The position numbers were made by a program, and so were the translations under genes. From UHGV virus genome UHGV-1366603: 64,000 nucleotides of DNA. One strand, written 5' to 3'. The notes beneath the pieces were generated by a model that saw only the letters and a list, made by a program, of their open reading frames with translations, was not told the DNA's origin and made no database searches. This DNA is from a virus. Positions 6,676-62,300 of this stretch are shown here, piece by piece. Every line of letters begins with the position of its first letter. The first letter of the stretch is position 1.

Positions 6676-6885
6676 TTAGTCTTTTTTGTAGACGATCGCG
6701 TTACCGTGCAGTTTGTTGTTACCGGAAATACCGATAACTTTAAACGCTTCACCGCCGATCTTTTCAGCTTCGACAGCCAGCTTAGCAGTAACGTCGTCTA
6801 CGGTGTCACCGAAAGCGCTTACGTTACCAATTTTCTTGAACTCTTCAGGAATGTGTTCAGCAGAAGAGAATTCTTTAATAGCCAT
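6676..6885 (-). CDS. small YdgH/BhsA/McbA (DUF1471)-like domain protein, no signal peptide
   Basis: 69 aa. C-terminal pattern ..KLAVEAEKIGGEAFKVIGISGNNKLHGNAIVYKK matches the DUF1471 signature (..SG.N..HG.A..YK). Confidence 0.5.
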   Translation of the reverse strand: MAIKEFSSAEHIPEEFKKIGNVSAFGDTVDDVTAKLAVEAEKIGGEAFKVIGISGNNKLHGNAIVYKKD

Positions 6886-7084
6886 AGCTACTCTCCAGTT
6901 AAAGAAAGGAAGGACTGTATCGTGTTACAACCAAAGCATAAGATAGCTCCTCCCCGAAGGGAGGAGTGAGTGCGCGAAAAAAGTGGCCTGCTTAACTAAA
7001 CGATGAGGTTTAAGAAAAGTGTTGATAAGAAGCTTACCAACGTCAGGTCACAATATATAATACCAACGTAAGAAAAAGGGGAAA

Positions 7085-15308: not shown

Positions 15309-15917
15309 ATGAACGAAATTACTTTGGTTCGTTTTATTGAAGCGATGCATCTAAACGAAGCTAATCCGCACTCTCCGTTATTCATCGATTTAATGGAGGA
15401 AGAAGTCGAAGGGTTCTTAGCGTACCCGCGTTTGAAAGACTACTTCGAACGTAAAACACCAACCGCTTACGAAAAGCTGATGTACGCGTTAGATAACCGT
15501 ACTACGCTAAACAATACGCCGTTTAAAGCGCTGGAAGCAATAGACCCTACCGGGGGTGCAGGTATCCCACAACGTGTTGTGTTCTACTACATCGACAACG
15601 GACGTATTAAAGCCGACGTTGTAAACTGGATCTCCGAAGGGGAAATCCCAGAAACGCGTACTTTTAACCTCTGTCCGGTAGAAGAAGGTTGGGTTGCAGG
15701 AACGCATTATTCCTATCCGTATCAAAGCATCAAATCACCTTATCTGTATCCGGTGTATTTAGATGACGTTACGCCAGGGAAATGTATTCCCGTTACCAAT
15801 CTGATTTGTTTACTGACGATGGAAGTTGTTGCGTCGGACGCAGGCCAGGCTTGGGTTGAGCAATCGAAGAATATCCAAAACTGGCAGGAGATGGGTTACA
15901 AACTCTATCAGCCGTAA
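15309..15917 (+). CDS. hypothetical protein (202 aa)
   Basis: ORF track; SD AAGGAAA; no motif recognised. Confidence 0.6.
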   Translation: MNEITLVRFIEAMHLNEANPHSPLFIDLMEEEVEGFLAYPRLKDYFERKTPTAYEKLMYALDNRTTLNNTPFKALEAIDPTGGAGIPQRVVFYYIDNGRIKADVVNWISEGEIPETRTFNLCPVEEGWVAGTHYSYPYQSIKSPYLYPVYLDDVTPGKCIPVTNLICLLTMEVVASDAGQAWVEQSKNIQNWQEMGYKLYQP

Positions 15918-15923
15918 TACCAC

Positions 15924-15970
15924 GAGAGAACCTTCGGGTTCTCTCCCTTCTCTTTTATTTTTTTTTCTTT
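15924..15970 (+). terminator. rho-independent terminator (GAGAGAACC-TTCG-GGTTCTCTC + long T-run)
   Basis: 9-bp stem, tetraloop, then TCTTTTATTTTTTTTTCTTTTT. Confidence 0.6.
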
Positions 15971-16002
15971 TTACACCACGCTCCGTGAATATGGAGGTGG
16001 AC

Positions 16003-18507
16003 ATGTTAAAAGTTGAACGTATTGTACTTAAAGGATTTACCGGAATGGGATTACACGAAATCGAAACCTTCGATTTTACTATCCATTCCCCGACCACCAT
16101 TATCCTCGGTGGTAACGGGTGCGGTAAGACCAGCTTACTGTCCGTGTTTCTACCTATCGCACCTTCGAAATCCGAATTCCGTGACGGGGGTTCTTACACC
16201 AACATCTGTTTGGTTAACGACCATCGTTACAAATTTAAGGTTGCACGTAAAGGCAACTCACTGGTTTGCGATATCGAGAACCTGACGACGGGTACCAAAA
16301 TCGTCGAACAAGGTAATGCGAAAGTGTATAACTCTCGTGTAGAAGAAATCACGGGCATTACAAAAGAGATTAAAGAGTTACTGAACGGAGAAGTGCTTTT
16401 AACGGATGCAGGAACGGAGCTGCGTCGTAAGTGGTTCTACCGTTTAAGTACGTCAGACTTAACTTACGCGTTAGGTTTTTATCAACGTTTACGAAAAAAC
16501 CTGACGATGCTAAACGGTGGTATTGAAATCACCAGCCGTAAAATTGCAGAGTTGCGTACCCGCGTAATTGATAACGAGGAAGAACGTCAGCAGTTAGCAA
16601 CACGGTTAAAAGCATTAGAAGTAGATTTACGTGAACTCAACAAACAGATTGAACAACTGCCTGGTCTGAATCGTGACGTTACGGTGGCAACTATTCAATC
16701 GCTATTGCTTAAAATCGAAGCACCGATTAATGCTATCTTGGAACACCGTGGCGGATTACCTACGGAAGAACAGGTAGAGGAAGCACGACGGATTGAAGCC
16801 ACTGCCCGTGAAGCGGTGGTCTCTGCTGAAACAGAACTATCCATGCTAAACAAAGATTTGTCTTTGTTGATGGACGAGTCCACTCGCCAAGATTACCTGA
16901 TGCGGAATCACGAGGGGTTAAAAAACACGGTTGCGAAACTGCGCGAGTTATTAAAGCAGTGGGACACTGAGCATCTTTTCCCTGAACTGTTTGCGGAGAC
17001 CGTTAACATCGACCAGCTTAAAGCAGCGACGGATGCGCGTGTCTGGGGACAACGTTTAGGAACAACGCTGGATGCTATTAAATCAACGGAACGGTTGAAC
17101 GTACTGGAAGAGAAACTGTTGACCTTAGACCAAAACTCATCTGGGTTGCGTGACCGGTTACAACGCGTTGAAAACGTATTGCAGAACCTCAACCACGAAC
17201 GGAATCACTATTTGGAAACTGCCGAGGTTGATTGTCCGCAGTGTCAATTTAAATTCCGTCCGGGTGTCCGTCGATCGCTGCCTGAATTGGAAGAAGCCAT
17301 TCGTGGTCAGATGGAGCAACGTAATACGTTACAGACTCAACTTGATTCCGTATTGCGAGACCGTACGGAATTAGAGTCAGACGTTAATTACATGCGTCAA
17401 GTACGGGAAATTGTTTTAACATACTCGAAAGACCCGGTATTGAGCTTGTTCTTTAAACGACTCCAGGAGCGGAATGTCTTTACGGATAACCGTAGTCAGT
17501 TTGGTAGTTTGTGCGCAGAGTTTGATCGTGAACTTTATTCTGCAATTGAGTACCACGAAACGAAACACCGTTTCGCTAAAGCGGAAAAAGAGTGGGAAAA
17601 TGCAGTTGCAGCGGTAGGTAACGTTGACGGTGCACTACAGCAGAAAATTGCCTTCCAGCAGGAACGTTTGGGTAAGGCAACAGAAACGCTCTCAGAGCGC
17701 CGTAGAGAGCACGCAGTTGCTAATGATACCTTTTGTTATCTAAACGAACTTAAAGCCACTGTAGACAATTTTAATGCGGTTTTTGAGCGTTTAGAGAACG
17801 ATGTTAAGGTAACATTAACCAACACGGTGGTCGAAACGTTATTAAACGCCCGAGAAAACAAGTTGGATGCGTTCACCACAGCACGGGAACGGTACCGTCA
17901 GATGGAAAACGAACTCAACCAACTTACTGCGTTAGAAAAGGAGTTATCAGATTTACAAGCGCAGCAATTCAATAACAAGCTGATGATTCAAGCGTTCTCA
18001 CCTGAGAAAGGGGTATTACGCAAATACTTCTACAACGCTATCGTGAGAATCACGGAATTGATGACGCGGTATATCGAACAAGTCTGGACCTACCCTATGC
18101 GGGTCATGCCGTGCGACTTAACCGACGGTGACTTAGACTACACGTTCCCAGTGCAGTTGAAAACCCATCCTGAGCCGGTACCTGACGTGCGGAAAGGGTC
18201 GAAAGCGCAGCGAGCCATCTTTAATTTGATGTTTCGTTTAACCGCTTACAAAGCCCTGAAACTTCATCAGTATCCGCTACTGTTGGATGAACCGTCAGAA
18301 GGGATGGATGAGGAACACCGAAATAACCTCGTCGGGTTTATTAAAACCCTGGCGAATTCCGGTGAGTTCTCTCAGTTACTGGTGGTATCTCACGAAGCAG
18401 AAATTCATTCAAAACTTAACGAAGCCGCATACTGTGTTATTGAACCTGAAGGCGTAACACTGCCTGCGGTATACAACGAGGGAGTAAAAATTGTCTACGC
18501 AAACTGA
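16003..18507 (+). CDS. Rad50/SbcC/gp46-like ABC ATPase with coiled coil and CPQC zinc hook
   Basis: N-terminal Walker A ILGGNGCGKTSLL; long coiled-coil middle containing ..VDCPQCQF..; C-terminal signature-like GSKAQRAIFNL, Walker B LLLDEPSEGMD and H-loop VVSHE. ATG at 16003 preceded by GGAGGTGG. Confidence 0.7.
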   Translation: MLKVERIVLKGFTGMGLHEIETFDFTIHSPTTIILGGNGCGKTSLLSVFLPIAPSKSEFRDGGSYTNICLVNDHRYKFKVARKGNSLVCDIENLTTGTKIVEQGNAKVYNSRVEEITGITKEIKELLNGEVLLTDAGTELRRKWFYRLSTSDLTYALGFYQRLRKNLTMLNGGIEITSRKIAELRTRVIDNEEERQQLATRLKALEVDLRELNKQIEQLPGLNRDVTVATIQSLLLKIEAPINAILEHRGGLPTEEQVEEARRIEATAREAVVSAETELSMLNKDLSLLMDESTRQDYLMRNHEGLKNTVAKLRELLKQWDTEHLFPELFAETVNIDQLKAATDARVWGQRLGTTLDAIKSTERLNVLEEKLLTLDQNSSGLRDRLQRVENVLQNLNHERNHYLETAEVDCPQCQFKFRPGVRRSLPELEEAIRGQMEQRNTLQTQLDSVLRDRTELESDVNYMRQVREIVLTYSKDPVLSLFFKRLQERNVFTDNRSQFGSLCAEFDRELYSAIEYHETKHRFAKAEKEWENAVAAVGNVDGALQQKIAFQQERLGKATETLSERRREHAVANDTFCYLNELKATVDNFNAVFERLENDVKVTLTNTVVETLLNARENKLDAFTTARERYRQMENELNQLTALEKELSDLQAQQFNNKLMIQAFSPEKGVLRKYFYNAIVRITELMTRYIEQVWTYPMRVMPCDLTDGDLDYTFPVQLKTHPEPVPDVRKGSKAQRAIFNLMFRLTAYKALKLHQYPLLLDEPSEGMDEEHRNNLVGFIKTLANSGEFSQLLVVSHEAEIHSKLNEAAYCVIEPEGVTLPAVYNEGVKIVYAN

Positions 18508-27245: not shown

Positions 27246-27980
27246 ATGACATACCCGAAAACGATTCAACCTACCTTACCGACGCTGGTAATCGGTGCTG
27301 ACGCAGAAACCAAATCACTGCGTCCTGATGCGTATCTGTTAACCACAGGCTTAGTTGCCTTTGACGTACCGACTTTAAAAATGGTAGGGTCGTCGTATAT
27401 GCGTATTGATCCTAACGACCCTAAAGCAAAAGCTGTGTTCCACGAAGACCCGCAAACCGTGGGGTGGTGGGAAGGTAAAGGAGAACCTGAATACGCACCG
27501 TCTCGCGAAGCCTATACGGAAGCATGGGGCGGTACTACACCTATGCCGGAAGCGCTGTGGGCGATGCGTAAGTGGTTAGACGAAATCACCGGTAAACACA
27601 ATTTTGTTATCACCATGCGTGGCCCGGATTTCGATTCTCCGATTTTCATGAACGCGTTCGCACAATGTGACGTCCCTCCAGGTAAGTTCCGTAAATTCAG
27701 CGCGTTAGACAGCGACCGCACCGCAGAACGTTTAGCGTTGGCGTTTGGTTTTGAACCTGACTTGACCGTTGAGCAAGTTTACTGGACGCGTGGCAAACCT
27801 GCATTTGAACACCATGCTTTGTGGGACGCTGCGAAAGAAGCGTACACCACCGCACGTATTTATCACCTTGCACTGATTACCCGCGAGTATGGGTACGAAC
27901 GTGCTAAAGCCTGTCACGAAGAACTGAAAACCGGTGAATATATTCCACCACAGATTCGTGATCAGTTAACCAGGGATTAA
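27246..27980 (+). CDS. DEDDh (DnaQ-like) 3'-5' exonuclease (putative)
   Basis: Exo I-like IGADAETKS, Exo II-like GPDFDSPIFM, Exo III-like HHALWDAAKEAYTTARIYH. Confidence 0.55.
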   Translation: MTYPKTIQPTLPTLVIGADAETKSLRPDAYLLTTGLVAFDVPTLKMVGSSYMRIDPNDPKAKAVFHEDPQTVGWWEGKGEPEYAPSREAYTEAWGGTTPMPEALWAMRKWLDEITGKHNFVITMRGPDFDSPIFMNAFAQCDVPPGKFRKFSALDSDRTAERLALAFGFEPDLTVEQVYWTRGKPAFEHHALWDAAKEAYTTARIYHLALITREYGYERAKACHEELKTGEYIPPQIRDQLTRD

Positions 27981-27982
27981 GA

Positions 27983-29494
27983 ATGAAGAACGTTGATGTT
28001 GCTGTACTTTATACCGACGGTAGCCATTTAACCTCACCGATGGGAACAGGCGGTGGGATTCACGGTTACCTGTTTAATAAGGAAGAAATTGTTGACGGTG
28101 GCGTTTATCGCCACCCTACCATTCCCGAAGGGATTACAACCTCCGGCTATCGCCAGATTAACAAAGAGGAAAAACTTCCTGCGTTACCAGACTCTGTTGA
28201 GTTCGTGGACTGTGTTATTCCGGTACCGAAACACCACCACTCTGACGTTGCAGAGATTGTTGCTTTTTTAACCGTTTTCGAAAAAGCACCGTTCGTTGCA
28301 AAGAACTACATTATCTATATCGATGCGTCTTACGTTGTGAATACGTTTAACGATTGGATTGACGGTTGGGCTAAGCGGGACTGGCGACGGGCTGATGGAA
28401 CCCCTATCGCGAACCTTGAGCTGGTTCAACGGATGTGGGAAATTAAGAAACGTCTGAAGCGTGAAGGAAAAGGGATTCGTGTTCTTAAAATCAAAGGACA
28501 CTCTGGTCACTACGGTAACGAACGGGCTGACGGGCTGGCACGAAAAGGATCGTCCATCTCTGCACACGGAGAAGGCTTAGATTATCAGGCGTACTGGTCA
28601 GCAGACGAAATCCCGGAAGAACAGCAGGAAGAAATCGTCAGTGAAGGCGTTAACGTTGCCGCGTTTCCTGATATTTGCGTAACTAAGTTCTGTTACCCGA
28701 TGGTAAATGAGCAGCACCCTACAGTTAAAGTAAACGGTGAAAATCTCTATTACATGTTCGGGGGTAACCACGCAAAACAGAAGGACGATATTGTCTTCGT
28801 CGGAAAATACATTCCTGATGCGCAGTTTTGTGTGATGTTTACACGTGAGCCGTGGACAAACGTTTACGATTTGGTTAACACCCACGCTGCTAAAGCCTGG
28901 GAAGGTGTGCCGCGTTTGCGTCAGTTTGACCCTATCGCAGTTGTTTTTAACCTGTTCGTAAAACGTAAGAAGTTTGCGGAAGCAGCGGCTAACGGTATTC
29001 CGGTTGACAAAATGCACTTTAGCGAAGACAAAAACCTGTGGATGTACGAAGACTTGTCCATCAGTCGTATTCTGCGTCCTGCGTTATTGTCTTACCGTTG
29101 CATTTCCATTCGTGATGAACTGGCAGTGTGGCTGCGTGACTGTTTGGAAGGCAAATCAAACGTTGTCTTAAATGACATTACCGATTTGCTTTATGACGAA
29201 AAAGGTAAACCCACCAAAGACTTTTACCGAAACGTGGATAAAGGGTTTGACGTCTCCATTAAAATCCCTAACGGGAAGGTTGCCGTTAAAACTATTTTGA
29301 CGCGTGCTATCGACTTACCGACGCGTACGGAAATCAACCGTATCAAAGAACCGAATGGACGATTCTACGTCGCTGTACGTCGTCCAGAACGTCAGTACGT
29401 TGAATACGCGTTAGTGTATATCGGTGAGAAGTATCACGGTCTGTGGTGTGGTTATTATTCAAACAAACGAATATTGACCGATAAGGAACTTTGA
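27983..29494 (+). CDS. RNase HI-like domain protein with ~300-aa C-terminal extension
   Basis: VAVLYTDGS (Asp), ..VAEIVAFL.. (Glu), ..IYIDASYVVNTFNDWIDGWAKRDW.. (Asp), ..KIKGHSGHYGNERADGLARKG.. (His/Asp) parallel E. coli RNase HI catalytic motifs. Confidence 0.75.
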   Translation: MKNVDVAVLYTDGSHLTSPMGTGGGIHGYLFNKEEIVDGGVYRHPTIPEGITTSGYRQINKEEKLPALPDSVEFVDCVIPVPKHHHSDVAEIVAFLTVFEKAPFVAKNYIIYIDASYVVNTFNDWIDGWAKRDWRRADGTPIANLELVQRMWEIKKRLKREGKGIRVLKIKGHSGHYGNERADGLARKGSSISAHGEGLDYQAYWSADEIPEEQQEEIVSEGVNVAAFPDICVTKFCYPMVNEQHPTVKVNGENLYYMFGGNHAKQKDDIVFVGKYIPDAQFCVMFTREPWTNVYDLVNTHAAKAWEGVPRLRQFDPIAVVFNLFVKRKKFAEAAANGIPVDKMHFSEDKNLWMYEDLSISRILRPALLSYRCISIRDELAVWLRDCLEGKSNVVLNDITDLLYDEKGKPTKDFYRNVDKGFDVSIKIPNGKVAVKTILTRAIDLPTRTEINRIKEPNGRFYVAVRRPERQYVEYALVYIGEKYHGLWCGYYSNKRILTDKEL

Positions 29495-33879: not shown

Positions 33880-33896
33880 CGTGAAAATAAAGATTA

Positions 33897-33942
33897 CCCC
33901 TAGACCTTGTGGTCTAGGGGTAGCTTTTACTTATTATTTTTT
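33897..33942. terminator. bidirectional terminator (CCCCTAGACC-TTGT-GGTCTAGGGG, T-runs both sides)
   Basis: 10-bp stem between convergent genes 32996..33879 and 33934..34689. Confidence 0.6.
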
Positions 33943-34689: not shown

Positions 34690-34786
34690 TTAAAACCTCG
34701 GATTATAAGTCAGGGTTACATAGTAAAGTCTTTTTACAGTTCATCCTGAACTTATGACCGAGATTATCTCACAAAGGTAAAGCTCG

Positions 34787-35086
34787 ATGAAAATCAAATT
34801 ACTGACTCGAAACACCACGCCTCGTCTGGAACCGGAAATCTATCTTACCCCGGTGAAAAAAGACAAAGAAGGTAAGCCTATTCAAGTAGGTAAGATTCTT
34901 AGCGTGACTTCTTTACCTAACGGTAAGCGCGTGATGGAATTAGAAATCGACGAGCGCAACAAACGTCGTTTCGAGTCTATTGAGAACCCCTATCCTGAAA
35001 AATCGGAAGAAGTCACCGAGTGGGCAGAGACCTACTTTGAATTCTGGCACAAACGCCGTCTTCTTCTTCCGACCAAGAATCGTTAA
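34787..35086 (+). CDS. hypothetical protein (99 aa)
   Basis: ORF track. Confidence 0.5.
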   Translation: MKIKLLTRNTTPRLEPEIYLTPVKKDKEGKPIQVGKILSVTSLPNGKRVMELEIDERNKRRFESIENPYPEKSEEVTEWAETYFEFWHKRRLLLPTKNR

Positions 35087-35101
35087 TTATTGGAGCGCTA
35101 A

Positions 35102-36598
35102 ATGGCAGGCCCAACTAAGCAAGTTATCGGTGAAGTAATTCGTCCTCGTTTTAACGTTTATACCATCATGGACCACGCCTTAGGCAACTACGAAAGAGGC
35201 GAAGATGGTTTATACTACCTTAACGGTGGTTTTGCCCACATCATGGGTTTCGCGGGTCGTGGTAACACCTTCAAATCTACACTGTTGGATTTCTGTATCT
35301 TCCAAATCCTGCAACGCTATAAAGCAGAGTGGGGTTCGAAATACGATACCGAAGTGTCTGCTGCCCTCGATCGCTTAGAGACTGGTTATATTTCTGCCAT
35401 GCACGCCAACGGTATTGACGATGGAACTTCGGTACTGGAACTTATTCACGAAGGTCGTTATAACCTCGTTGGTTCTGACGTGATGCCAGGGGAACAGTAT
35501 TACAGTGACTATATTCGTGACGAAGTGGAAAAACGCTTCAAGCAGTATATGTCTGGTAAAACCCGTGTAACCCCGTTCCTTGACCCAGTTCGTCGTAAGC
35601 AAAAAGAAATCCTTGACCCGTGGCTGTATTCTATCGACTCCCTGTCTGAGTGGCACTCGTCTTCTCTGGAAGACAAGCACGCTAAAACGGATATCGGTGA
35701 TTCCGATCAGAACATTCTCAACGCCCACGACGCCTTACAGAAATCGAACATGATGAGCCGTTGGCCGTCTGCGTTTGCCCGTGGTGGTTTCTACATGGGC
35801 TTTGTTGCACAGATGGCGGACGACTCCGGTAAGGCGATGGCTGGCGGTCGTCAAGGGCAGAAAGCAAACGCGAAACTGCTGGACGATGCGAACGACGATC
35901 TCAAATTCGCAGGGATTCCTCGTCGTCAGTTAAGCTTCCTGACTAACTCGTTTATTGTTGCGACAAAATCAGGCGAGCTGAAAAAAGACCAGAGTTATAA
36001 TGCCCAGACCGGTGTTAACGAAGAACTTTACCCAACTGCACGTTCAAAAGCCATGAACGCGTCGGTTAACGACCTGAAAGTTATCACCTTTACGCAATAC
36101 CGTGCTAAAGGCGGTCACACGGGTGTGAAGTTCCAGATGATCTTCTCACAAGAGATGGGTCTACTGTACCACCTGAGCCTGTGGCATTACCTGAGTGACA
36201 CCCTGAAAAAATCCGAATTTGGGTTTACGTCCAGCGGTAGCGGTGGTTCCATTAAAGAACTCCAGATTCTTCCTGGTGTTAAATTCCAGCGTACGACGAT
36301 TCGTGACATGATTGACGATAACCCGAAACTGCGTCGGGCATTAGAAATCACGGCTGCGATTGCGTACATGCAAAACAACTACCATCGTTTAGAGGTTAAA
36401 TACCACCTCACGATGGAAGAAATCTACAAACTCATTGATGAAAAATGGGATTGGAATGAGATTCTGGAAAACACCGTAGAATACTGGATGTTTAAAGACC
36501 AGGAAACGAAAGGTGGTAAACGCACGTTAACTGCCCGTACGATTCTGGGTATGGCCGTGGACGGCCTGGAACCGAAGTTCCTCACCAAAAAGAAATAA
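35102..36598 (+). CDS. RecA/UvsX-like P-loop ATPase (putative recombinase)
   Basis: ..GGFAHIMGFAGRGNTFKSTLLD.. resembles the T4 UvsX P-loop ..GLTIFAGPSKHFKSNMSL..; candidate Walker B ..PWLYSIDSLSEW.. Confidence 0.45.
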   Translation: MAGPTKQVIGEVIRPRFNVYTIMDHALGNYERGEDGLYYLNGGFAHIMGFAGRGNTFKSTLLDFCIFQILQRYKAEWGSKYDTEVSAALDRLETGYISAMHANGIDDGTSVLELIHEGRYNLVGSDVMPGEQYYSDYIRDEVEKRFKQYMSGKTRVTPFLDPVRRKQKEILDPWLYSIDSLSEWHSSSLEDKHAKTDIGDSDQNILNAHDALQKSNMMSRWPSAFARGGFYMGFVAQMADDSGKAMAGGRQGQKANAKLLDDANDDLKFAGIPRRQLSFLTNSFIVATKSGELKKDQSYNAQTGVNEELYPTARSKAMNASVNDLKVITFTQYRAKGGHTGVKFQMIFSQEMGLLYHLSLWHYLSDTLKKSEFGFTSSGSGGSIKELQILPGVKFQRTTIRDMIDDNPKLRRALEITAAIAYMQNNYHRLEVKYHLTMEEIYKLIDEKWDWNEILENTVEYWMFKDQETKGGKRTLTARTILGMAVDGLEPKFLTKKK

Positions 36599-36643
36599 AA
36601 GCGTTAGGGTAGGGGATTACCCTACCCTAGCTAAGGAGTCGTT

Positions 36644-36943
36644 ATGCGTTATCAAACGGAGATTGTGGAACGCTTAAGCGAAGGTTTAGCCAGCGTCAGT
36701 CTGGAAACAGCAGCGGCATTTCGTGAGACTTTCGCTACTTTCTTTCCCGATCGTGAATCTTTTTGTTTAAAGGTCGGTGAATATTATTCCAAGTTACTCG
36801 AACACTACGGTTATCCGCCGGTGAAATTCGACGTACCTGAAAACACCGACGACATCAGTTATTGGATTGAAACCCTCGAAGCAGGGACACTTTCCAACTT
36901 GCGTAAGGCGGTAGAAAATGAAACTCGATCCAGCGCGGCGTAA
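36644..36943 (+). CDS. hypothetical protein (99 aa)
   Basis: SD TAAGGAG; preceded by hairpin GGGTAGGG-GATTA-CCCTACCC with no T-run. Confidence 0.5.
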   Translation: MRYQTEIVERLSEGLASVSLETAAAFRETFATFFPDRESFCLKVGEYYSKLLEHYGYPPVKFDVPENTDDISYWIETLEAGTLSNLRKAVENETRSSAA

Positions 36944-50545: not shown

Positions 50546-53500
50546 TTAACCTGCACGTCTAACGTTAAGCTGTCGTGCTGGCTGTTCAACGGACATTTGT
50601 CGTGATGCTGAACCTGCTGGTGCCATAGGTTGAGCCGATGCGGTGTTTTGTACCGGTTGTGGACGTTGCTTAAGGATCGTGACAATCTCTTTGAGATAAC
50701 CCGCCGATTCTTTCGCAACAGCCAACTGCTGAACACTAATCGGATCGCCACTGCTAAGTGTAGGTCCGTTTTGTGCATCAGAAGTAACCGCAGGTGCCGG
50801 TTTACTCGTCGCTGCTGCGCGCTGCACAGCACCTTCTTTCACCTTCTCGACATCTTCTTCAGGCAACCCTTCATTTCTGGCTCCAGTTGCAACAGTCTCC
50901 CCAATCATAGAGGCGTCACCGCCTGCACTACTACCGCCAGGTGACGGTACTGCTGGACCACCACTGGTTGCAGCTTTGACGTTGTCCGCACCCATTGCAC
51001 CTTTCTCTGCTAACGCTTCATCACGACGCGCAGCATTGGACGCAGGCAAGTTATCCGTCGCTCCAGAAATTGATGGATCGTTAGCTGCCCCTGCTGCTAC
51101 CGCCGGAGAGGAGGCAACCGCAGGCGTTAGCCCTTTCACCATGTCTTTCGTTGAAGCTGGGTTAGCCGCAATTTCGTTTGTCGCCACAGCACCCATACGG
51201 CGGTTCAGTTCATTAATAACTTCACCAACAGTACGAATACGAACAATCTGCTTGCCGCGCATTTCGTAGAAGACCCCCTTATTACCACTAAGGATTTGAG
51301 GAGTAATGCCTTCTGCTTTGTCGGCTGGCATGTTCGGATTCTGCCGCCATGCATTAAGGAACTTCTTACCACCGCCTGGGCCCAAGAAGTGATACAGATA
51401 CGCAACAGCCGGAGGCGGTTCTACACCACCTAAGTCTTTCTGCGCCTGCATGATATTGTCACGAATAAACTGTACCCCGAGGATGGTATTTGCCCACGGG
51501 TCGTACTGGTTTACTTGCGGTATACCGTACCGACGAGAGTACCCTTTCATCATTCCAGACCACGTTTTGTCAATGAACTGGAACAACCCTGCTGCTGACG
51601 CACCTGGGTTCTTGACACCATATTTGAAATCAGATTCGGCTTTCGCCATCGCAATCGCGACCGCAGGCGGAACACCTAAGGTATTTGCGACATCCGCAAT
51701 CATCGCTTTAACGCCTTCTACGTTAGGTGACTTACCATCACCCAGTTTGCTGATTGGATACTTCTCAGCCAAGGTTTTGTAATCACCTTCTTTGACGTCC
51801 CCGAGTTTAATCCCGGATTGGCCCGTAGAGAACTTCGCGTAATTGCTAATACCCATCTCACCCACAACTTGAGACAGATCACCCGGTGTACCGTAAGACG
51901 ACCCACCGTTTGGCAAGTACCCATCCTTAGACGCTGTACCCCAATCAACAACACCTTTGAAACGATCTTTGGTGTCTTCGTCGGTTTGGTACATTCTCGT
52001 CGCACGATCGGCTTTCTGCCACTTCGCACGTTTACCTGCTGCGGGTGTAGACCGCAGGGTATCACGAACAGCCAGGTCAGGTTCTTTGGACAGTTCTTTC
52101 AGGTTGGCAAGTTCAGTAGCAACAGAACCTGCGTCGGTGTTTGCTTCTTCACCCAGTGGGTTGAACGGAATCTCCCACACGGACTGACGAATACCACCCT
52201 TCATGTTGTAAGCGCCACGAATCATCAACGCCAATTCGTACATGAACCCACCGGATACTTTCAGTTCGGTAGGGTCTGCTTGCGGAATGTAACGTTTCAG
52301 ACCAACGACGTAGGTCATATACGCCGGTAAGAAACGGTTGTAGAACCAGTTCTTACAACGCTCCTCTTTAGGACCACCTATCAGGTCAGGCGAGATAACC
52401 GCAATGGCTTCTTTCCAGTTGCCTTTATAGGTACAGTTCTTCACATCAATGTCTTTCAACACGTTCTTCTCTAACAGTGTGAAAAGATTACGCGTTGTTT
52501 GGTTGATAGTAACCGCACCGTAGGTTTTCCACCTGACCGATTCCAGGTCTTCCAAATCACTTTTCTTCGGTAAGGAATGCCAGTCAACTTGGATTTGAAC
52601 CTGTTCAGTTCCGTCTTCCCAACCTTCGACCTTCGCAACTTTCTCGTTACGTTCAGCATCTGCATTCGCCAGTACCTGACTGGTTTCAGCAACGGACGCA
52701 ACTTTGTGGCCTTCGACAGCATCACGCATACCTGAACGTTGTTTCCGTTTGTCGTCAGTACGCATGTTGATTGACCGCCACACACGTTCCTGTGCTTCGA
52801 CAACCTCTTCCCCTGACAAGAACTCTGCCGGAGTAAAGGTAACGAAATCCCACGCTTTAGAGAACCAACCCTGGTTAACTTTACGCGGGTCAGTCAATGA
52901 ACGGAATTCCGCAGAATCTTTACCCATCTTCATTTTGTTGTAGAGGGTAATCATATCCGCTTTCGACACTTTCTTCGGATCACCAACATCTGCCAAAGCG
53001 ATGTCGTTATCCATCGACTTCAGTGCTGAAATCCAGCGGAGGTAAATCGGTGCGAAACGTTGTAGCATAAACGCAGTAAATGCTAACATCTCACCACGTT
53101 CTTCCAAGTTTACACCGAACCCTTCTGCGAGTTTCTTCACGTCTTCGGAAGACAAGCCACGTAATTGTGCTTCACCCCCTTCGGTATACGAGACGTAAGG
53201 TTTCAAAGCGTCTTCTAAATAACGGGCTTTCATACCGTCTTCAGAAGACCACTGGTCGTAGTCACGGAAACCGTATTGTGCCAGACGCATATAGTCGAGG
53301 TACTGTGCTTTCACACGGGTAGCGCATTTATACGCCCAATAACCCAGACCAGCGGCAGTCGCACCGATCGCAATTGCAGGCCAACCCACCGCAGCCACTA
53401 CCGTAGATGCAGCCGAGGCTACCGCAGTCACTGCCGGTACCGCTAAACGTTGTACAGCAAACTTACCAACGTTCCACGCTGCTTTACCGAGGAACCCGGT

Positions 53501-56500
53501 AGGTTTAAAAATACCCCACTTCGCAACTTTGCCCAGTATCGAACCCACCGTACCTAAGATACTCACGATTGGTCCTACTAACGGTAAGTCTTTGAGGAAG
53601 TCCATCACCCCGCCTTTACGTCCTTTCTGCTCAGCGGTTTTCTTGGCTTTCTCTTCTTCCTTAGAACGTCTACGACGACGGAAGAATTGGAAGTAGTCAC
53701 GTTTTTCATCGTTGGCTGCCGGTTTGTTACGTTGTCCGAACTTACTGAACATCGTACGAATCAGGCCATCAGGTGCACCAGCACGTTCCGCAGAGTCACG
53801 CATGGTGTTAAACCAGGACATTTCCTGGAGGTTAACCATCCGGTTTAAACGTTCCAATAATGCTGAACCAACACTCTTCGCTTTCTGCTTACCTTTGTTG
53901 ATAACGCGTCCTGCGGTATCCGTTGCGGTTTCGAAATCCTCCTTCGCTGCGTTAAACACGCGTGTTGGAGAAACCTTACCACGAGCGTACAAGTGTTGAC
54001 GGTAAAACTCCGCAACGTCATCATCACGACCCGCTAAACGCGACTCCGCCCGATAACGTGTGGCAATATCGTAGCGTGGGTCACGGAAGCTATCTACTGT
54101 TTCACCAAAGCGCCCACGGAAACGGTCAAACCACCCTTTACCCGCAGCGCCCCAACGAGACAGTCTATCGCCAACGCCATGACGGAAACGTGAGAATCGG
54201 TCACGTTGTCTGCCTCGCCAATCCCGGAAATTCTGGAAGTAATCTTTAAATCCGTCGCGGAAATCCTTAACACGGTTAAGCATCCCTTTGATAGATTTCG
54301 AGCCAACGTTTTTCTCCAGTTGCTCCGTCCAGGATTCATCTTCAGGCTCACCGTCTAAACGACGGTTAAGGAGTTTATAGATACGAATCAGGATATGGTT
54401 GGTCTTACGGCCATTCGACCAAGAGAACATGCTGAAGCCACCGCCAGAACCACCTTCCTTACGATTCTGCCACCACCGGGTAAGCGGGTTGTCGGTCGCT
54501 AACTCTTTGAATTTCTCAAAGCCACGTTTTGCATTGTTCCACAAACGAGCAGGCATTCCGGTTACGCGAGAAATCATGCTTTGTAAACGTGTTTTCTCAC
54601 TCCCCTCAGGAATCTCATTAAGCCACTCACGCGCTTTCTCGAAGATAGACGCTGCTCTTGGCGAGATTAGACCAATCAGTTTCTTCGGTAAGTTAACAGC
54701 TTTGTTTACTGCTGTACCTGCTTTACCGGAGATATACTGGAACAGGGCCTGGAGTTTACCGCCTTTATAGAAGCGCAGTTTACCCGCAGCCGCTAAGTCT
54801 GCCGCTGCGAGAATCAAGTTCCCGGCTTCGTCAACAATATCACGACCCAGCTTAATGTCGTCTAACGAGCGGAGTTGTACCAGCTTGTTGGTTTTAGGGT
54901 CAGCCTGATAATACTCACCTGCCTCTAAACGGCTTCCTTGTAAAACAACATTGCCTTTCTCGTCGTAGATGTCCCGAACACCAAGAACACCTTTCCCGAA
55001 GGCGACCGCCGAATTCCAGCCTGTGGACAACGTACCAGTAACTAAACCTTTCAGTCGTTCAAAAACACCTGGACCGTCAGATGGCCCACCGGAGAATTTC
55101 CCACGAATAAAACTGCCCAGTGACTGTAAACGCCCTTTCCCTCTCAGGAACATGTTCTTCGCAAAACGACCCGCGCCCGTACCGGTGTCCCAAAGTACGC
55201 CCGCCCAACGACGGAACAGCCCACTTTCACCAAGCACGATGCGTTTACGCTTGCGTTTGTTACCGGTGCTACCTGCATCTTCAGAAGCGTCACCCTCGTC
55301 ACCGTCACGACCACCACCTAAGCTGGCCAGCAGGATACCTTCCTCATCCATGTTCTTAACATGTTTCAGAATTTCCTGCACGGTGTTGGATTCGGACTTA
55401 TTACGAATAGCATCAACGATTCTATCAAACTGTTGCTCTAACCCTGCGGTGGTATCAGGACGTTCGCTTAGCAGTTCAACAAAGTTGGTAGATTTTTCAC
55501 CGTAGAGGACAGCAGCAAGTTGTCGTGCCGACAGTCCACGGCCACCGCGACCGCCTTTACCTTTAACGGTGTCAATTGTCGACTCGTCACCGGTTACGGA
55601 GGCGTCTACCCCTAAACGACGTAAATAGTCACCTAGCGCAGAACCGTTTTTCAGTTTGCGCTGGATTTCTTGTTCACGCGTTAACGAACGACCGGAACGG
55701 GTTTTCCCCATGGCCAGGTCGTTATACAGCGTATACGGATCGTTAATGTCTTTATCTACATCAAACCGATCGTTCTTCGCATCGTACTTAAAGATACCTG
55801 CATCACGTAACGCATTCTCACCGTAGATAATTGAAGCTTCGTCTACCGTGTTTTGACGTGCACGAATTGTTGACTGAATGGCCGAAATCTTACCAGCGAT
55901 TTCGTTGCTAAGTTCGTGATGACCGCCTGTCAGTTCTGAAGACCGTGCTTCTAAGACCGCCTGAATCGCTTCTACCGCGTTTGCATTCATGTAACGATAC
56001 ATGTGCATCGGGTCTTTCAGCAGACTGCCTACGTCGAACGCCTTACCTTCAGACGCACGTGATTCGATATAGTCCGCCAGCGCTTGGCGAGTTTTCGAAT
56101 CCAGAGTTTTGTCTTTGTCGATAAAGTCAACGGTTTCGTTAATGTACTGCTGTAAACGCTTCCGCTGTTCATCGTTCGCAACCGCTTTACGGACACGGTT
56201 GCCGACAACTTTACGGTCAATCATCCCACGCGTGGTTAAATCGTACACCTGGTCGTGGTGTTCGCCGTACCCGCGACGAATAGATTTGTTAATCTCCGTC
56301 AGCAAAGTCGGGATGACTTCCGTGATGCTAAGATACGCTTTACGGTCGAACTTCGCAGCGGCGGATAACGCTTCTGCTGAACGTTCTTCTAAAGCTAATC
56401 CCTCACGACGCAGCGGTGTCACTAACCCCATCTCGTGCATTAAACGGAAGACGGTGGCCAGTGGGCCGTCTATCTCACCAGCAATCGCCGAGTTAGAGAT

Positions 56501-57682
56501 AGAAGATAAGTTACCGAACCCGTAGCGTGCCAACTGAAGCCGTTTCATGACTTCTGGGTTCTTTTCTAACTCACTGCGTGTCCAGTTCTGTAAACGTTCT
56601 ACCTGAGGTTGTAAGAACCGTTTTGCTAACCAACTACCGGCAAACCCTGCGACTTTACCTCGGGAATTCGTACGACGACGTTCTGGCGACAGTGTAGAAC
56701 TGTCTTCCATGCCGAAGTCGTCTTCCTGACTCATTGACAGAACTTGTTCTAATATCCCGCGTCCGTCGCTGAAGATATTCGAAATCTTTTTCTTCGCGTT
56801 CTCACGAATCTGATCAATAAAGTTATCCGCGTAACGCAAGGGGTTCATCCATTCGGCAGCTTTACGTTTTACGTTAGCCCAACGAACTTCAGAGAATTCC
56901 TCTTTTGCGTAGTCCGGCAACGCGGTGTTTTTAACAATCGCTTCAAGTGCCGGGGTGTTACGGCTAAACTCATCCTGTTTAAGTTTAGCAATATCTTGCA
57001 ACGCGAATAACGTACGGTATTGCAGCTCTAGCTGTTTACGCTGAACGTTAAGCATTACCCCGCGACTTAAACTGGTCGTCAGGTTAACGTCTTTCGCAAT
57101 ACCGATAACCGTCTGGAACAGCGCATCGGACTTCATGTCCTTGATGGTGTCACGAAGACGGTCTTCTACCATTCCTTCCTGAACTTCACGTTGTTGTTCA
57201 GGTGTTTGTGGCGTACCTGCAAAAACAGAGTCTAACTCACGATCCATTAACGCTTGTTTAGGATCGTAATTCCCGTAATCGTACTGGTCGCTTTTCGCCC
57301 ACTTGTCGATCTTACGGGTTACACTGTCAGGCAAATACCGTTTTAGGGTTGGGCCTAACTGACGAGCTTGTGCCTTCACCACACGGGAGGTCTTTTCAAT
57401 CTCGTCTTTCGTATGGGCCAGAATGTCTTGACCTGCGGCTTTGACGTTCTTATAACCTTCATAAGCGTCAGTCGCCGGTTTTGGCATTCCTTTTAAAATG
57501 ACCTGATCACGTTTATTTTCGGGCCAGATAGTCGACAACGCCGACTTACGGGCAGCACGAAATGTGTCCATGACCGGGTTACGCGATTGGTCTTGTTGAC
57601 GAGGGGGCTCATCAAAATCGTCCCAGTCGTCCATGTTATCAAGATCGATTTCATCGAAATCGTCTTTACCTTTTTTAGCCAT
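50546..57682 (-). CDS. giant virion-type protein (2378 aa) with C-terminal lytic transglycosylase (SLT) domain
   Basis: SLT motifs ..AMAKAESDFKYGVKNPGASAAGLFQFIDKTW.. and ..AYLYHFLGPGG.. (coding ~51290..51720); acidic N-terminus; Gly/Arg repeats; Ala/Pro-rich C-terminal tail. Confidence 0.8.
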   Translation of the reverse strand: MAKKGKDDFDEIDLDNMDDWDDFDEPPRQQDQSRNPVMDTFRAARKSALSTIWPENKRDQVILKGMPKPATDAYEGYKNVKAAGQDILAHTKDEIEKTSRVVKAQARQLGPTLKRYLPDSVTRKIDKWAKSDQYDYGNYDPKQALMDRELDSVFAGTPQTPEQQREVQEGMVEDRLRDTIKDMKSDALFQTVIGIAKDVNLTTSLSRGVMLNVQRKQLELQYRTLFALQDIAKLKQDEFSRNTPALEAIVKNTALPDYAKEEFSEVRWANVKRKAAEWMNPLRYADNFIDQIRENAKKKISNIFSDGRGILEQVLSMSQEDDFGMEDSSTLSPERRRTNSRGKVAGFAGSWLAKRFLQPQVERLQNWTRSELEKNPEVMKRLQLARYGFGNLSSISNSAIAGEIDGPLATVFRLMHEMGLVTPLRREGLALEERSAEALSAAAKFDRKAYLSITEVIPTLLTEINKSIRRGYGEHHDQVYDLTTRGMIDRKVVGNRVRKAVANDEQRKRLQQYINETVDFIDKDKTLDSKTRQALADYIESRASEGKAFDVGSLLKDPMHMYRYMNANAVEAIQAVLEARSSELTGGHHELSNEIAGKISAIQSTIRARQNTVDEASIIYGENALRDAGIFKYDAKNDRFDVDKDINDPYTLYNDLAMGKTRSGRSLTREQEIQRKLKNGSALGDYLRRLGVDASVTGDESTIDTVKGKGGRGGRGLSARQLAAVLYGEKSTNFVELLSERPDTTAGLEQQFDRIVDAIRNKSESNTVQEILKHVKNMDEEGILLASLGGGRDGDEGDASEDAGSTGNKRKRKRIVLGESGLFRRWAGVLWDTGTGAGRFAKNMFLRGKGRLQSLGSFIRGKFSGGPSDGPGVFERLKGLVTGTLSTGWNSAVAFGKGVLGVRDIYDEKGNVVLQGSRLEAGEYYQADPKTNKLVQLRSLDDIKLGRDIVDEAGNLILAAADLAAAGKLRFYKGGKLQALFQYISGKAGTAVNKAVNLPKKLIGLISPRAASIFEKAREWLNEIPEGSEKTRLQSMISRVTGMPARLWNNAKRGFEKFKELATDNPLTRWWQNRKEGGSGGGFSMFSWSNGRKTNHILIRIYKLLNRRLDGEPEDESWTEQLEKNVGSKSIKGMLNRVKDFRDGFKDYFQNFRDWRGRQRDRFSRFRHGVGDRLSRWGAAGKGWFDRFRGRFGETVDSFRDPRYDIATRYRAESRLAGRDDDVAEFYRQHLYARGKVSPTRVFNAAKEDFETATDTAGRVINKGKQKAKSVGSALLERLNRMVNLQEMSWFNTMRDSAERAGAPDGLIRTMFSKFGQRNKPAANDEKRDYFQFFRRRRRSKEEEKAKKTAEQKGRKGGVMDFLKDLPLVGPIVSILGTVGSILGKVAKWGIFKPTGFLGKAAWNVGKFAVQRLAVPAVTAVASAASTVVAAVGWPAIAIGATAAGLGYWAYKCATRVKAQYLDYMRLAQYGFRDYDQWSSEDGMKARYLEDALKPYVSYTEGGEAQLRGLSSEDVKKLAEGFGVNLEERGEMLAFTAFMLQRFAPIYLRWISALKSMDNDIALADVGDPKKVSKADMITLYNKMKMGKDSAEFRSLTDPRKVNQGWFSKAWDFVTFTPAEFLSGEEVVEAQERVWRSINMRTDDKRKQRSGMRDAVEGHKVASVAETSQVLANADAERNEKVAKVEGWEDGTEQVQIQVDWHSLPKKSDLEDLESVRWKTYGAVTINQTTRNLFTLLEKNVLKDIDVKNCTYKGNWKEAIAVISPDLIGGPKEERCKNWFYNRFLPAYMTYVVGLKRYIPQADPTELKVSGGFMYELALMIRGAYNMKGGIRQSVWEIPFNPLGEEANTDAGSVATELANLKELSKEPDLAVRDTLRSTPAAGKRAKWQKADRATRMYQTDEDTKDRFKGVVDWGTASKDGYLPNGGSSYGTPGDLSQVVGEMGISNYAKFSTGQSGIKLGDVKEGDYKTLAEKYPISKLGDGKSPNVEGVKAMIADVANTLGVPPAVAIAMAKAESDFKYGVKNPGASAAGLFQFIDKTWSGMMKGYSRRYGIPQVNQYDPWANTILGVQFIRDNIMQAQKDLGGVEPPPAVAYLYHFLGPGGGKKFLNAWRQNPNMPADKAEGITPQILSGNKGVFYEMRGKQIVRIRTVGEVINELNRRMGAVATNEIAANPASTKDMVKGLTPAVASSPAVAAGAANDPSISGATDNLPASNAARRDEALAEKGAMGADNVKAATSGGPAVPSPGGSSAGGDASMIGETVATGARNEGLPEEDVEKVKEGAVQRAAATSKPAPAVTSDAQNGPTLSSGDPISVQQLAVAKESAGYLKEIVTILKQRPQPVQNTASAQPMAPAGSASRQMSVEQPARQLNVRRAG

Positions 57683-59340: not shown

Positions 59341-62300
59341 ATGCTGCTCATTAAACAGTTTAACCAACGCTTCTCTGTGCGTAAAACAGACGAGTTTGGT
59401 AATCCGAGGATTATCCCGCTCGAGAAGCTCCAGATACCACGAGGCTCCATACTGCACGTCGTGGATCTCGATCAGGTGGTCTTAGCGCCACCTGCTACGC
59501 TGGAAATCATCCAGCCGTTGGAAAAACCTGCACAAATTCGCCACCACTTTAAACTTCCCGAAGAAGGGATTAGTGGGCATCCACGTAACAAACCTGTGCA
59601 GGGGCAAGAACGTGCTATCTTTGCGTACCATCGCGCTAACCGTCCAATTCGTCGTCTGACTTCAGATGACCTGGTGCGTAAAGACTTAAAAGTTCTCCTT
59701 ATTGAGAACTACACACCGATGTTATCGCACTACTATTATCCAGACACTCAGTTAGCCTGGTACGATAGACTGCGTAATATCCAGCTGTTAATGACCAACC
59801 AGTTCAAATACGACACGCAAGAATACATGCGTCAGAACTATTTCGTGATTGAGCTGGGATCAACGTTACCGTCTTTCCAGAAGTTCCAAACGACGTATAA
59901 CGATCGCGTTAAAAGCAAGATTGAAAAGTTCCAGGACTTTAACCTGCTGTGGCTGTTGGAACTTTTCGCTTGGGCGTACGGTAAACAGTCCGATTCTCTG
60001 TTTGCGGGAATGGACTTAACGCAACTGTCTCGAATGAACTTCATCTTCACCCATAACGGCGGCTTTACGTCGATGAACATGGGTGTCGTGGAGAAGATGC
60101 GTAAATCGTCCGGTGGTCGTTTAAGTGACGACCAGATGGCCAGGATGTTCTATCGTACGTTAGTGCGTGTAATGACACAAGCACCGTCTAATGCGTACGA
60201 AGCTGAATTCCTGACACCGGAAGGTGATGAACGTATCTTTGTTAAAGACATCGAAGAAGAGACGGTTGACGTCGCTGACGATGGAGACGTTGTTAACGAC
60301 GCTGTGGTTGAATCGGATAACGCATTCGATGAAAAAGAAGACCTCGTTATTGAGGAACCGAAAGAAGACGTTAAGCCGACGACTATCGTTATCGAAAAAA
60401 CGATTGCTCACGATGACATTATCAAACAGGAAGCGCAGAAACTGGCTGAGGCGGGCCGCTTAAGCTCTAAAGCGTATCAGTTCCTGTCTGATTCGACTAA
60501 ACGTTTCGTTCAGTTACCGAACCCGTATAACCCGAAAGAGACTTACGGTGAAGCATTAACCATTCACGAAAAAGACATTGCCGTGAAAGCGGAACCGAAG
60601 AAAGTCCAGCGACTGGTTACGGATGAAGGTTGGGCAGAAAACGTCACCGACCAAATGGTGAAACAATACAACCAGACCATGATGAGTAAAGACGTACTGG
60701 CAGCTGTCGCCAGCTCGCAGCGTCTTGGTTTGGCTATTCACAACCACACGATCGAGAAAGAGATTTCCGTTACGGGAACTATCGAACACCACACCCTGCG
60801 TGTTCAACCGATTGGTGGTGAACCGACGACAGTGCGTTTCTCTATCCCTGGTCTAACCGAAGACGGTACCTGGGTAGCAAACGGTGTTGAATACACCATG
60901 CGTCGTCAGCGTGTAGACGTGCCGATTCGTAAGGTCGCCCCAGACACCGTAGCGTTAACGACCGCTTACGGTAAAAACTTCGTACGTCGCAGTGACAAAG
61001 TCGCAAACGACTACGGTCGCTGGTTAACGAACGCGATTATCACGCGTGCCGTAGACCCGACCAACACGGAGATCACTGACGCACGTCTCGCGAACGTTTT
61101 CGATCCTACTGAGAAACTTCCTCGTCAGTATACGGAGATTGCACGTCGTATCGCCAGCTTTAATGCAGGCGGGTATATGTGGAACTTCGATTATAAAGAA
61201 GCGGTTAACTTCTTTAATGACGAACAGCTTACTGACGCAAACAACGTTGAGATGTTGCCGGTTGCGAAACGTCCGCGTAGTGAAGTTATTGTGGTGATGG
61301 ATACCAAGTCCATGCTCTATACCGTTAAGGGTAAAGAGTGCACACCGCTGGGCACCATCTCTGAAGTGCTTGGTTTCAGTAACCAGAAAGCGCCAAGAGA
61401 GATGACCGAACTTTCACTGATGGGCAAATCGCTCTCACTGGGCTTCATCTTCTCGTTCTATTTAGGTCTGCAAGGGATGCTTAAGCATTTCGGCATTCAG
61501 TACGAAATCGTCCCTGTTGGCCAACGTGTAGATAAGAGCACGTACGATTCTATTATTCGTCTCCAGGACAGTAAGTTCCTGGTAACGTGTGATAACGATC
61601 AGCAACGAATGATTCTACACGGTCTGGATAAGTACCTGAAACACCTGGTAGCTTATACCGAGTCCGAAGTCGACCGCGAAGACATTTACCTGAACTTAAT
61701 ACGTGATGCAGATGGGCTAACTCCACGCTACATCAACGAGCTGAAACAAATGCGGGCCGCGTTTGTTGATGACATGCACGCACGTATCCTCAGGAAAATG
61801 GGTGAACCGGAAACCTTTATCGGGCTGTTGGAACGTTCTAACGAACTGTTACAAACCGACCACTCTTTGCCGGAGATTAACGGTGATGAGATGATGTTCT
61901 TAGGGAACCAACGTATTTCCTACCACATCTACACCGCGTTGGTCAGGGCGATGCGTAACTACAACAACGCACCGAACAGTAACCGTAAGTTCGAACTTAC
62001 TCAGGACATGATTTGGGGTGCCATTAACTCCGACCCGTCTGTTCTGTTAGCGCCGGGTGCTAACCCTATCCAGTCGATTAAAGAGAAAGACGTTATCACC
62101 ATGGGGGGCACGGGTGGCCGTAACCGTAAAACAATGGTTTATCACACGCGTGAGTTCCAACCGAGTGACCTGGGTATTGTATCCGGTAACACGGTGGATA
62201 ACGGTGACGTAGGTATTACTGCTTTCGCCACTAACAACCCACGTTTTGATACCGTTGACGGCACCACCTATAAACGGGATGAAAAGAAACTGAAGCCGAG

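Follow-up and report, generated by a model that had tools for sequence, protein, structure and literature searches.

Results

A RecA/UvsX-like gene in a jumbo-phage genome

We analyzed a 64,000-nucleotide (nt) stretch of the virus genome UHGV-1366603 (hereafter, the window), in which an open reading frame (ORF) on the plus strand, 35102-36598, encodes a 498-amino acid (aa) protein related to the recombinases UvsX and RecA. The ORF starts with ATG and is present in the program-made ORF list of the window, with the same coordinates that a first-pass annotation, made from the sequence alone, had given for a "UvsX/RecA-like ATPase with a non-canonical P-loop". An exhaustive profile search recovered 863 representative relatives at E<=1e-3 and 509 at E<=1e-30, nearly all of which were 450-540 aa long and matched from end to end. 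The existence of 863 representative relatives, together with the invariance of residues K58 and D179 in the 146 sequences used for the conservation analysis below, ruled out a chance ORF.

Membership of the RecA superfamily is supported by a PHROG match, a profile-profile match and the fold of a structural model. The sole significant profile match was to PHROG 97, "UvsX-like recombinase" (E = 1e-54 over residues 10-468), a profile that was also matched by T4 UvsX (9e-105) and Escherichia coli RecA (3e-91). When the profile of the family was compared with that of true UvsX using hhalign (E = 8.8e-5), the Walker A motif, a D-x-E motif, the Walker B motif, the L1 loop and the His/Gln sensor were all in register. 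An AlphaFold2 model of the protein (predicted local distance difference test score, pLDDT, 87.1; predicted template modeling score, pTM, 0.89) was compared with the PDB using Foldseek, and the best 50 matches were all bacterial RecA (prob 1.00; E = 3.3e-11 to 4e-8; template modeling score, TM, to the target 0.59-0.74). In a viral structure library, jumbo-phage "UvsX" proteins came first (TM 0.85), followed by phage RecA-type recombinases and, much lower, by DnaB helicases. No profile of a helicase or terminase, the kind of match that the first-pass annotation had named as contrary to its proposal, was among the significant matches, and both identities were rejected on account of the PHROG result, the 50 RecA matches in the PDB and the weakness of the DnaB fold matches.

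Catalytic motifs and their conservation

The segments GFAGRGNTFKST (residues 49-60, nt 35246-35281) and LYSIDSL (residues 175-181, nt 35624-35644), which had been picked out earlier as a P-loop followed by a Walker B-like strand, were both confirmed by direct reading of the sequence. Conservation was assessed in 146 relatives sharing 23-41% identity with the query. K58 (Walker A), D179 (Walker B) and G353 were invariant (146/146), and position 59 was Ser or Thr in every sequence. Also highly conserved were E84 (144/146), D82 (138/146), N55 (142/146) and S180 (142/146), and farther along the chain R334 and K336 (each 145/146) and Q350 (143/146). Because K58 and D179 are invariant, and E84, R334 and K336 nearly so, at approximately 25% identity, ATP hydrolysis would appear to be under strong selection. 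As far as alignments can tell, this pattern fits an active, oligomer-dependent ATPase and not a degenerate paralog.

The P-loop of the family follows the signature G-x-[GP]-N-x-[FY]-K-[ST]. Position 57 was Phe in 88, Tyr in 29 and the canonical Gly in 15 of the 146 relatives, so that the second Gly of the motif is replaced by Phe or Tyr in 80% of the sequences and kept in 10%. In a separate 34-sequence alignment (A1), the residue before the Walker A Lys was Phe in 33 sequences and Tyr in one. True UvsX proteins were likewise mixed, with F-K-[ST] in seven of nine and G-K-[TS] in a cyanophage and an Asteriusvirus sequence. Judging from these alignments, the Phe/Tyr P-loop is a genuine UvsX-like trait, a tolerated variant that is polymorphic in both lineages and is not unique, whereas the near-invariant Asn55 is specific to the jumbo-phage family. 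The parallel with UvsX drawn in the first-pass annotation therefore stands in so far as Phe takes the place of the second Gly in both proteins, but the loop quoted there for T4 (FAGPSKHFKS) was not quite exact: T4 reads LAGPSKSFKS, and GPSKHFKS is the form of the loop in other T4-like phages.

The remaining active-site positions (Table 1) could be placed by reference to UvsX and RecA. From its place in the D-x-E motif, E84 is the putative catalytic Glu that activates water, corresponding to E92 of UvsX and E96 of RecA. In the predicted L1 loop, G199 and N204 were conserved in 134 and 126 of the 146 relatives, respectively, and the segment aligned with RecA "EIGDSHMG"; the RecA alignment is non-significant by itself (hhalign against the single E. 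coli RecA sequence, E = 0.4) and was used solely for the local register of motifs. Position 237, at the end of strand beta5, was His in 125 and Gln in 19 of the 146 sequences; thus the window protein carries Gln where His is the family-typical residue. The gamma-phosphate sensor at this position (RecA Q194, UvsX H195) couples ATP to the L2 loop. L2 itself comprises approximately 34 residues, compared with approximately 15 in RecA and UvsX, and contains two conserved positions, K258 (105/146) and L260 (126/146). Residues 241-259 form the only low-confidence or disordered stretch of the model (pLDDT <50), as would be expected for a loop that becomes ordered on DNA, and DNA binding is predicted for it. 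Beyond L2, R334 aligned with UvsX R248 only in a permissive, low-confidence extension of the hhalign alignment. In RecA, K248 and K250 reach the ATP of the neighboring protomer in the filament, and by analogy R334 and K336 may act in trans on the ATP of a neighbor.

Domain architecture and comparison with UvsX and RecA

T4 UvsX (391 aa; PDB entry 3IO5) is 107 aa shorter than the window protein, in good agreement with the difference of about 100 aa noted in the first-pass annotation. The extra length is distributed along the chain. Compared with UvsX, the window protein has insertions at residues 154-171 and 293-324, and its L2 is about twice as long; in addition, the model and alignments revealed a small hairpin at residues 29-41 that is extra relative to UvsX and RecA, and a helical segment after E84 that is longer than in either. 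The C-terminal domain of about 145 aa reached a pLDDT of 93.9 when it was modeled separately. Fold searches gave no match between it and the C-terminal domain of UvsX; the first helix and the hairpin are the only parts of it that could be aligned with UvsX, and that with low confidence. By contrast, the N-terminus is shorter, by ~25 aa in the comparison with UvsX, and approximately 13 residues (MAGPTKQVIGEVI) precede the first core segment, compared with approximately 33 in RecA and approximately 30 in UvsX. The N-terminal ~33 residues of RecA consist of helix A and a strand and serve as the polymerization element, the counterpart of which in Rad51 is the FxxA motif. In the window protein, a short N-terminal docking strand is possible.

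These differences are set against a substantial list of likenesses to T4 UvsX, which include the common PHROG 97, a GxxxxFK[ST] Walker A motif with a minority of canonical Gly in both lineages, the motifs Y-D-[ST]-E and I-D-S-L, a His sensor in most members of the family, and the basic-x-basic motif. The mutant phenotypes are also similar (small plaques, non-essential, damage-sensitive). The best fold matches of the window protein are to RecA, with which it shares a Walker B - "IGDS" L1 - "xxQ" segment that aligns residue for residue, and Gln at the position of RecA Q194. It differs from RecA in that sequence identity is only 10-14%, that the P-loop of RecA is the canonical GPESSGKT and its N-terminal helix is long, and that the C-terminal domain of RecA gave no match to that of the window protein in the fold search.

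Several relatives have additional N-terminal sequence. The metagenomic protein P0062 (773 aa) is an apparent fusion, in which ATP-dependent DNA ligase domains (PF01068, residues 11-175; PF14743 OB domain, residues 196-261) precede a full-length member of the recombinase family (residues 285-759). This apparent fusion connects the family, in Rosetta-stone fashion, with the repair of DNA breaks and may be taken as a supporting hint. N-terminal extensions without a Pfam match were seen in P0021-P0024 (635-636 aa; approximately 140 aa of extension) and in P0077 (716 aa; approximately 236 aa). P0023 keeps the usual "MAGP" start internally, suggesting a fusion with an upstream gene.

Orthology and phage group

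Sequence comparisons place the source of the window in the SPN3US-like (Seoulvirus/Chimalliviridae) group of jumbo phages, which have enterobacterial hosts; the nearest phage DNA records were only ~74% identical in DNA searches. By tblastn, the protein showed 81.4% aa identity to SPN3US gp216; identity was 56-80% with the orthologs of Erwinia phages and ~27% (over 98% of the length) with those of phiKZ-like Pseudomonas phages. One metagenomic protein was 96% identical. The tblastn search located the gene at one place per genome in 278 phage records, with a coverage of >=80% in 225 of them. The PhiPA3 record states that PhiPA3 gp175, phiKZ gp152 and 201phi2-1 gp237 correspond to one another, and the order RNase H gene, minus-strand virion gene, recombinase gene, phrog_6181 ORF and virion RNA polymerase (RNAP) subunit gene is kept from phiKZ and PhiPA3 to the window. 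From this homology and gene order, we regard the protein as the single-copy ortholog of SPN3US gp216 and phiKZ gp152 (Nlp1). It has in common with the members of the Nlp1 family (SPN3US gp216, phiKZ gp152, PhiPA3 gp175, 201phi2-1 gp237, Goslar gp193, RAY gp150 and PCH45 gp72) full-length homology, single copy, synteny, the set of motifs and the length class (family median, 485 aa). It is a new sequence in a known family, a core gene of nucleus-forming jumbo phages, which has been studied genetically and not biochemically.

In published work on the orthologs, phiKZ Nlp1 is described as a "UvsX/RecA homolog" and is a model nuclear cargo, the import of which requires Imp1 and Imp2 (bioRxiv 10.1101/2024.03.27.586873). 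A phiKZ delta-nlp1 mutant replicates slowly, forms small plaques, has a competitive index of 0.05 and is sensitive to NucC, a nuclease of the cyclic oligonucleotide-based anti-phage signaling system (CBASS) (PMC12676376). Nuclear localization has been reported for Goslar gp193, RAY gp150 and PCH45 gp72, and the PCH45 UvsX is non-essential. SPN3US gp216 has been cited as a diverged UvsX homolog (PMC5694885); the corresponding gene (NC_027402.1, 187951-189444; 81% identical to the window protein) is labeled "hypothetical protein" in both RefSeq and GenBank. In the Salmonella phages SPFM1/5/8/9/12/15 (P0030, P0031, P0033, P0037, P0038), the called orthologs have high bit scores but match only 4-12% of the query length, which is suggestive of frameshifts or fragmentation in the gene calls of these assemblies.

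Neighboring genes and signals

The features of the locus are listed in Table 1. Since the stop codon of the 99-aa ORF upstream (phrog_10750) lies 16 nt before the ATG of the recombinase gene, the two are probably co-transcribed, and the plus-strand unit seems to begin between divergent genes, in the intergenic region 34690-34786. The phrog_10750 ORF is present in SPN3US/SPLA5c but was not found at that position in PhiPA3, PA7 or Moabite; an extra 99-aa ORF directly upstream of the recombinase gene distinguishes the SPN3US lineage from the phiKZ-like phages. On the other side, the phrog_6181 ORF sits between the recombinase and virion RNAP subunit genes in phages of both the SPN3US-like and the phiKZ-like kind; in Moabite its conservation is weak. 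It was considered as a possible accessory factor of the recombinase and set aside: its last 26 nt lie within the RNAP subunit gene, which starts at 36918, and a hairpin stands between it and the recombinase gene, so that coupling to the RNAP gene is more likely.

This hairpin, which begins 7 nt past the stop codon of the recombinase gene, is not followed by a T-run on the plus strand and may mark where a transcript ends or is processed, setting the recombinase gene apart from the next ORF. A second perfect hairpin, with a 13-bp stem, was found at 33894-33923 between convergent genes ending at 33879 (plus strand) and 33934 (minus strand). Both are GC-rich, and both are possible terminators or processing sites for phage RNA polymerases. 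A scan for sigma-70 promoters gave fewer sites than in shuffled sequences and was regarded as uninformative, because the phage uses its own RNA polymerases.

The Rad50-like ATPase, RNase H and exonuclease, which the first-pass annotation had named along with the recombinase as parts of a self-contained toolkit for recombination-dependent replication, were all identified in the window by PHROG or Pfam matches. Together with the recombinase gene they lie scattered along ~20 kb, and virion genes and genes of unknown function come between them. Such a toolkit is plausible, and the idea is not new: Iyer et al. found RecA homologs to be widespread in jumbo phages and proposed a form of recombination-dependent replication for them, while UvsY and UvsW, the partners of T4 UvsX, were confined to T4-like phages and reported absent from the jumbo-phage group (PMC7824862). 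When neighbor genes of PhiPA3 and Moabite were compared with the window by tblastn, only the RNAP subunit was found. In Serratia phage Moabite, a gene for a DprA-like protein (a RecA loader; 6699-7193) lies two genes downstream of the UvsX-like gene, with an HHpred probability of 100 according to the depositors, and published work applies the name DprA to RAY gp153 as well.

Elsewhere in the window, very long ORFs are found at 50546-57682 (minus strand, 2378 aa), 973-5295 (minus strand, 1440 aa) and 59341-63507 (plus strand, 1388 aa). The 50-56 kb stretch, in which GC content is higher (0.49-0.51) and GC skew strongly negative, coincides with the giant minus-strand ORF.

Table 1. Features of the recombinase gene, its product and its surroundings (positions are nt of the window).
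Feature	Position	Strand	Basis or remarks
SbcC/Rad50-like ATPase gene	15826-18507		phrog_77, E = 1e-92; SMC_N match below Pfam cut-off
DEDDh-type exonuclease gene	27246-27980		PF16473
RNase H-domain protein gene	27983-29494		PF00075; counterpart of phiKZ gp155/Nlp2
99-aa ORF, phrog_10750 (unknown function)	34787-35086	+	directly upstream of recombinase gene
Ribosome-binding site GGAG	35092-35095	+	6 nt before ATG; read from sequence
RecA/UvsX-like recombinase gene	35102-36598	+	ORF list; phrog_97; orthology; AlphaFold2 model; RecA fold matches
Walker A / P-loop, G52-R-G-N-T-F57-K58-S59-T60	35255-35281	+	aligns with UvsX G60-PSKSF-K66-S
D82-T83-E84	35345-35353	+	aligns with UvsX "YDSE", confident hhalign region
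Family-specific beta-hairpin insertion, residues 154-171, just before Walker B strand	35561-35614	+	DSSP E154-161, E166-171; gapped against UvsX in hhalign
Walker B strand, L-Y-S-I-D179-S180	35624-35641	+	aligns with UvsX "FIDS" (D143) and RecA "VVDS"
L1-like predicted DNA-binding loop, residues 196-204, T-D-I-G199-D-S-D-Q-N204	35687-35713	+	aligns with UvsX L1 region
Q237, end of strand beta5	35810-35812	+	aligns with UvsX "INH" (H195) and RecA "INQ" (Q194)
Extended L2-like loop, residues 240-273, with K258-x-L260	35819-35920	+	model and conservation
Family-specific insertion, residues 293-324, between core strands beta6 and beta7	35978-36073	+	model secondary structure; gapped against UvsX in permissive hhalign
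R334-A-K336, basic-x-basic motif	36101-36109	+	position of UvsX K246/R248 and RecA K248/K250
Family-specific C-terminal domain, residues 352-498, mostly helical with small hairpin	36155-36595	+	model; conserved along whole family
Perfect 10-bp hairpin, TAGGGTAGGG-GATTA-CCCTACCCTA	36605-36629	.	past recombinase stop codon
99-aa ORF, phrog_6181 (unknown function)	36644-36943	+	ortholog of PhiPA3 gp173 / phiKZ gp150
Virion RNAP subunit gene	36918-37586		matches PhiPA3 gp172 / phiKZ gp149, E = 8e-34

Discussion

The window carries an Nlp1 ortholog with a RecA-type core fold, in which the catalytic motifs are in register with those of known recombinases and are conserved to an extreme degree. We consider it likely that this protein acts as a filament-forming, strand-exchange recombinase inside the phage nucleus; that the window protein binds DNA, forms filaments, exchanges strands and is imported into the nucleus is what we infer from these observations. 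After its synthesis in the cytoplasm, the protein would be imported across the chimallin boundary of the phage nucleus, as shown for its orthologs. It would bind ATP via the variant P-loop (K58/S59) and Mg2+ via D179, and would polymerize on single-stranded phage DNA, with R334 and K336 of each protomer reaching into its neighbor to complete the ATP site there. The DNA would be held by L1 (196-204) and the long L2 (240-273), E84 would activate water for ATP hydrolysis, and Q237 would link the gamma-phosphate to L2. The filament could then pair single-stranded DNA with a homologous duplex and exchange strands, thereby allowing double-strand break repair and providing primers for recombination-dependent replication.

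Several results weigh against this reading. Neither Pfam nor NCBIfam yielded a RecA-type match even at E<=10, and PDB sequences were matched neither by the single protein (phmmer) nor by the 34-sequence family profile (hmmsearch). Of the 270 ORFs in the window, the recombinase ORF scored best with a hidden Markov model (HMM) of nine true UvsX sequences, but its E-value was 0.71, and the hhalign probability with true UvsX was only 60%. The PHROG 97 match is not fully independent, because this profile was built by remote-homology clustering, probably with jumbo-phage members. The N-terminal polymerization helix of RecA and UvsX is absent, no helix being predicted there by the model, and the C-terminal domain had no fold match in the PDB (best E = 3.5, prob 0.02). 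No DprA-type loader was found in the window by tblastn with the Moabite DprA-like protein (UvsY was not searched for). Finally, the literature searched yields no biochemical test (ATPase, filament formation or strand exchange) of any member of the family, and the label "recombinase" therefore rests on homology and genetics. The Pfam, NCBIfam and PDB sequence results were not read as evidence against homology, because the fold and profile-profile results were positive. On the other hand, since the T4-type UvsX HMM reached only the E-value given above and the RecA models of Pfam and NCBIfam miss the protein, it is not UvsX in the narrow sense but belongs to a separate jumbo-phage lineage. The UvsX/RecA-like ATPase proposed in the first-pass annotation is thus upheld as a member of the RecA superfamily and not as a T4-type UvsX.

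The missing N-terminal helix and the unfamiliar C-terminal domain, as well as the lack of family biochemistry in the literature searched and the dispensability of the PCH45 UvsX, would also suit a RecA-fold accessory or mediator protein without strand exchange, like the Rad51 paralogs or RadB, which helps another recombinase (e.g., host RecA) or remodels DNA ends. We think this unlikely. The protein is encoded by the sole RecA-like ORF in the window, and its relatives occur once per genome in the 278 phages. Host RecA, moreover, is probably unavailable in the phage nucleus, because TopA is the only host protein reported inside that of phiKZ (bioRxiv 10.1101/2024.03.27.586873). The complete catalytic set is almost invariant and includes the putative trans-acting basic pair typical of filament-dependent ATPases, and the phenotype of phiKZ delta-nlp1 mimics that of T4 uvsX mutants.

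DnaB-type helicases, which turned up in the viral library as weaker fold matches from rank ~30 onward (E = 1e-7 to 1e-6), raise the question of a ring-forming RecA-fold motor (DnaB/superfamily 4 helicase, RadA/Sms-like or KaiC-like) in place of a recombinase. Such matches are expected, because DnaB has a RecA-like core. No helicase was among the best 50 PDB matches, no helicase PHROG was matched even at E<=1, and the DnaB N-terminal domain is not present. Furthermore, features specific to RecA and UvsX are in register, namely the D-x-E motif, an L1 of the G-D-S type, the His/Gln sensor with a disordered L2 after it, and the hairpin bearing the basic-x-basic motif. We consider a ring motor highly improbable. 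There is equally little to recommend a mainly non-enzymatic role, in which an abundant protein would coat or scaffold DNA in the nucleus and its ATPase would be dispensable: nuclear import of the orthologs is robust and extends to cargo fused to them, and the large family-specific C-terminal domain and insertions could serve protein-protein contacts, but K58 and D179 are invariant, and E84, R334 and K336 nearly so, across relatives ~25% identical to the query.

The architecture of the protein invites a further suggestion, which we make tentatively and with more doubt than conviction: the family may represent a third, structurally distinct lineage of phage recombinases, with a RecA core that lacks the N-terminal helix and has gained two insertions, a double-length L2 and a C-terminal domain of about 145 aa unseen in the PDB. 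In that case, the filament would be built through a different protomer interface, and loading onto single-stranded DNA would proceed without a UvsY-type mediator. The C-terminal domain and/or the insertions would be the import license read by Imp1 and a lineage-specific adaptor such as Imp2. The aromatic P-loop residue, which is common to UvsX, might change nucleotide chemistry; T4 UvsX has been reported to yield both ADP and AMP.

For the window, our analysis confirms a known core gene; what novelty is left concerns the absent N-terminal helix, the C-terminal domain with its orphan fold and the aromatic residue of the P-loop. Because the SPN3US ortholog is still a "hypothetical protein" and Pfam and NCBIfam do not recognize the family, correct annotation of these genes matters. 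The recombinase is probably the only engine of homologous recombination inside the jumbo-phage nucleus, and in phiKZ it is Nlp1 that decides the survival of the phage under attack by the CBASS nuclease NucC.

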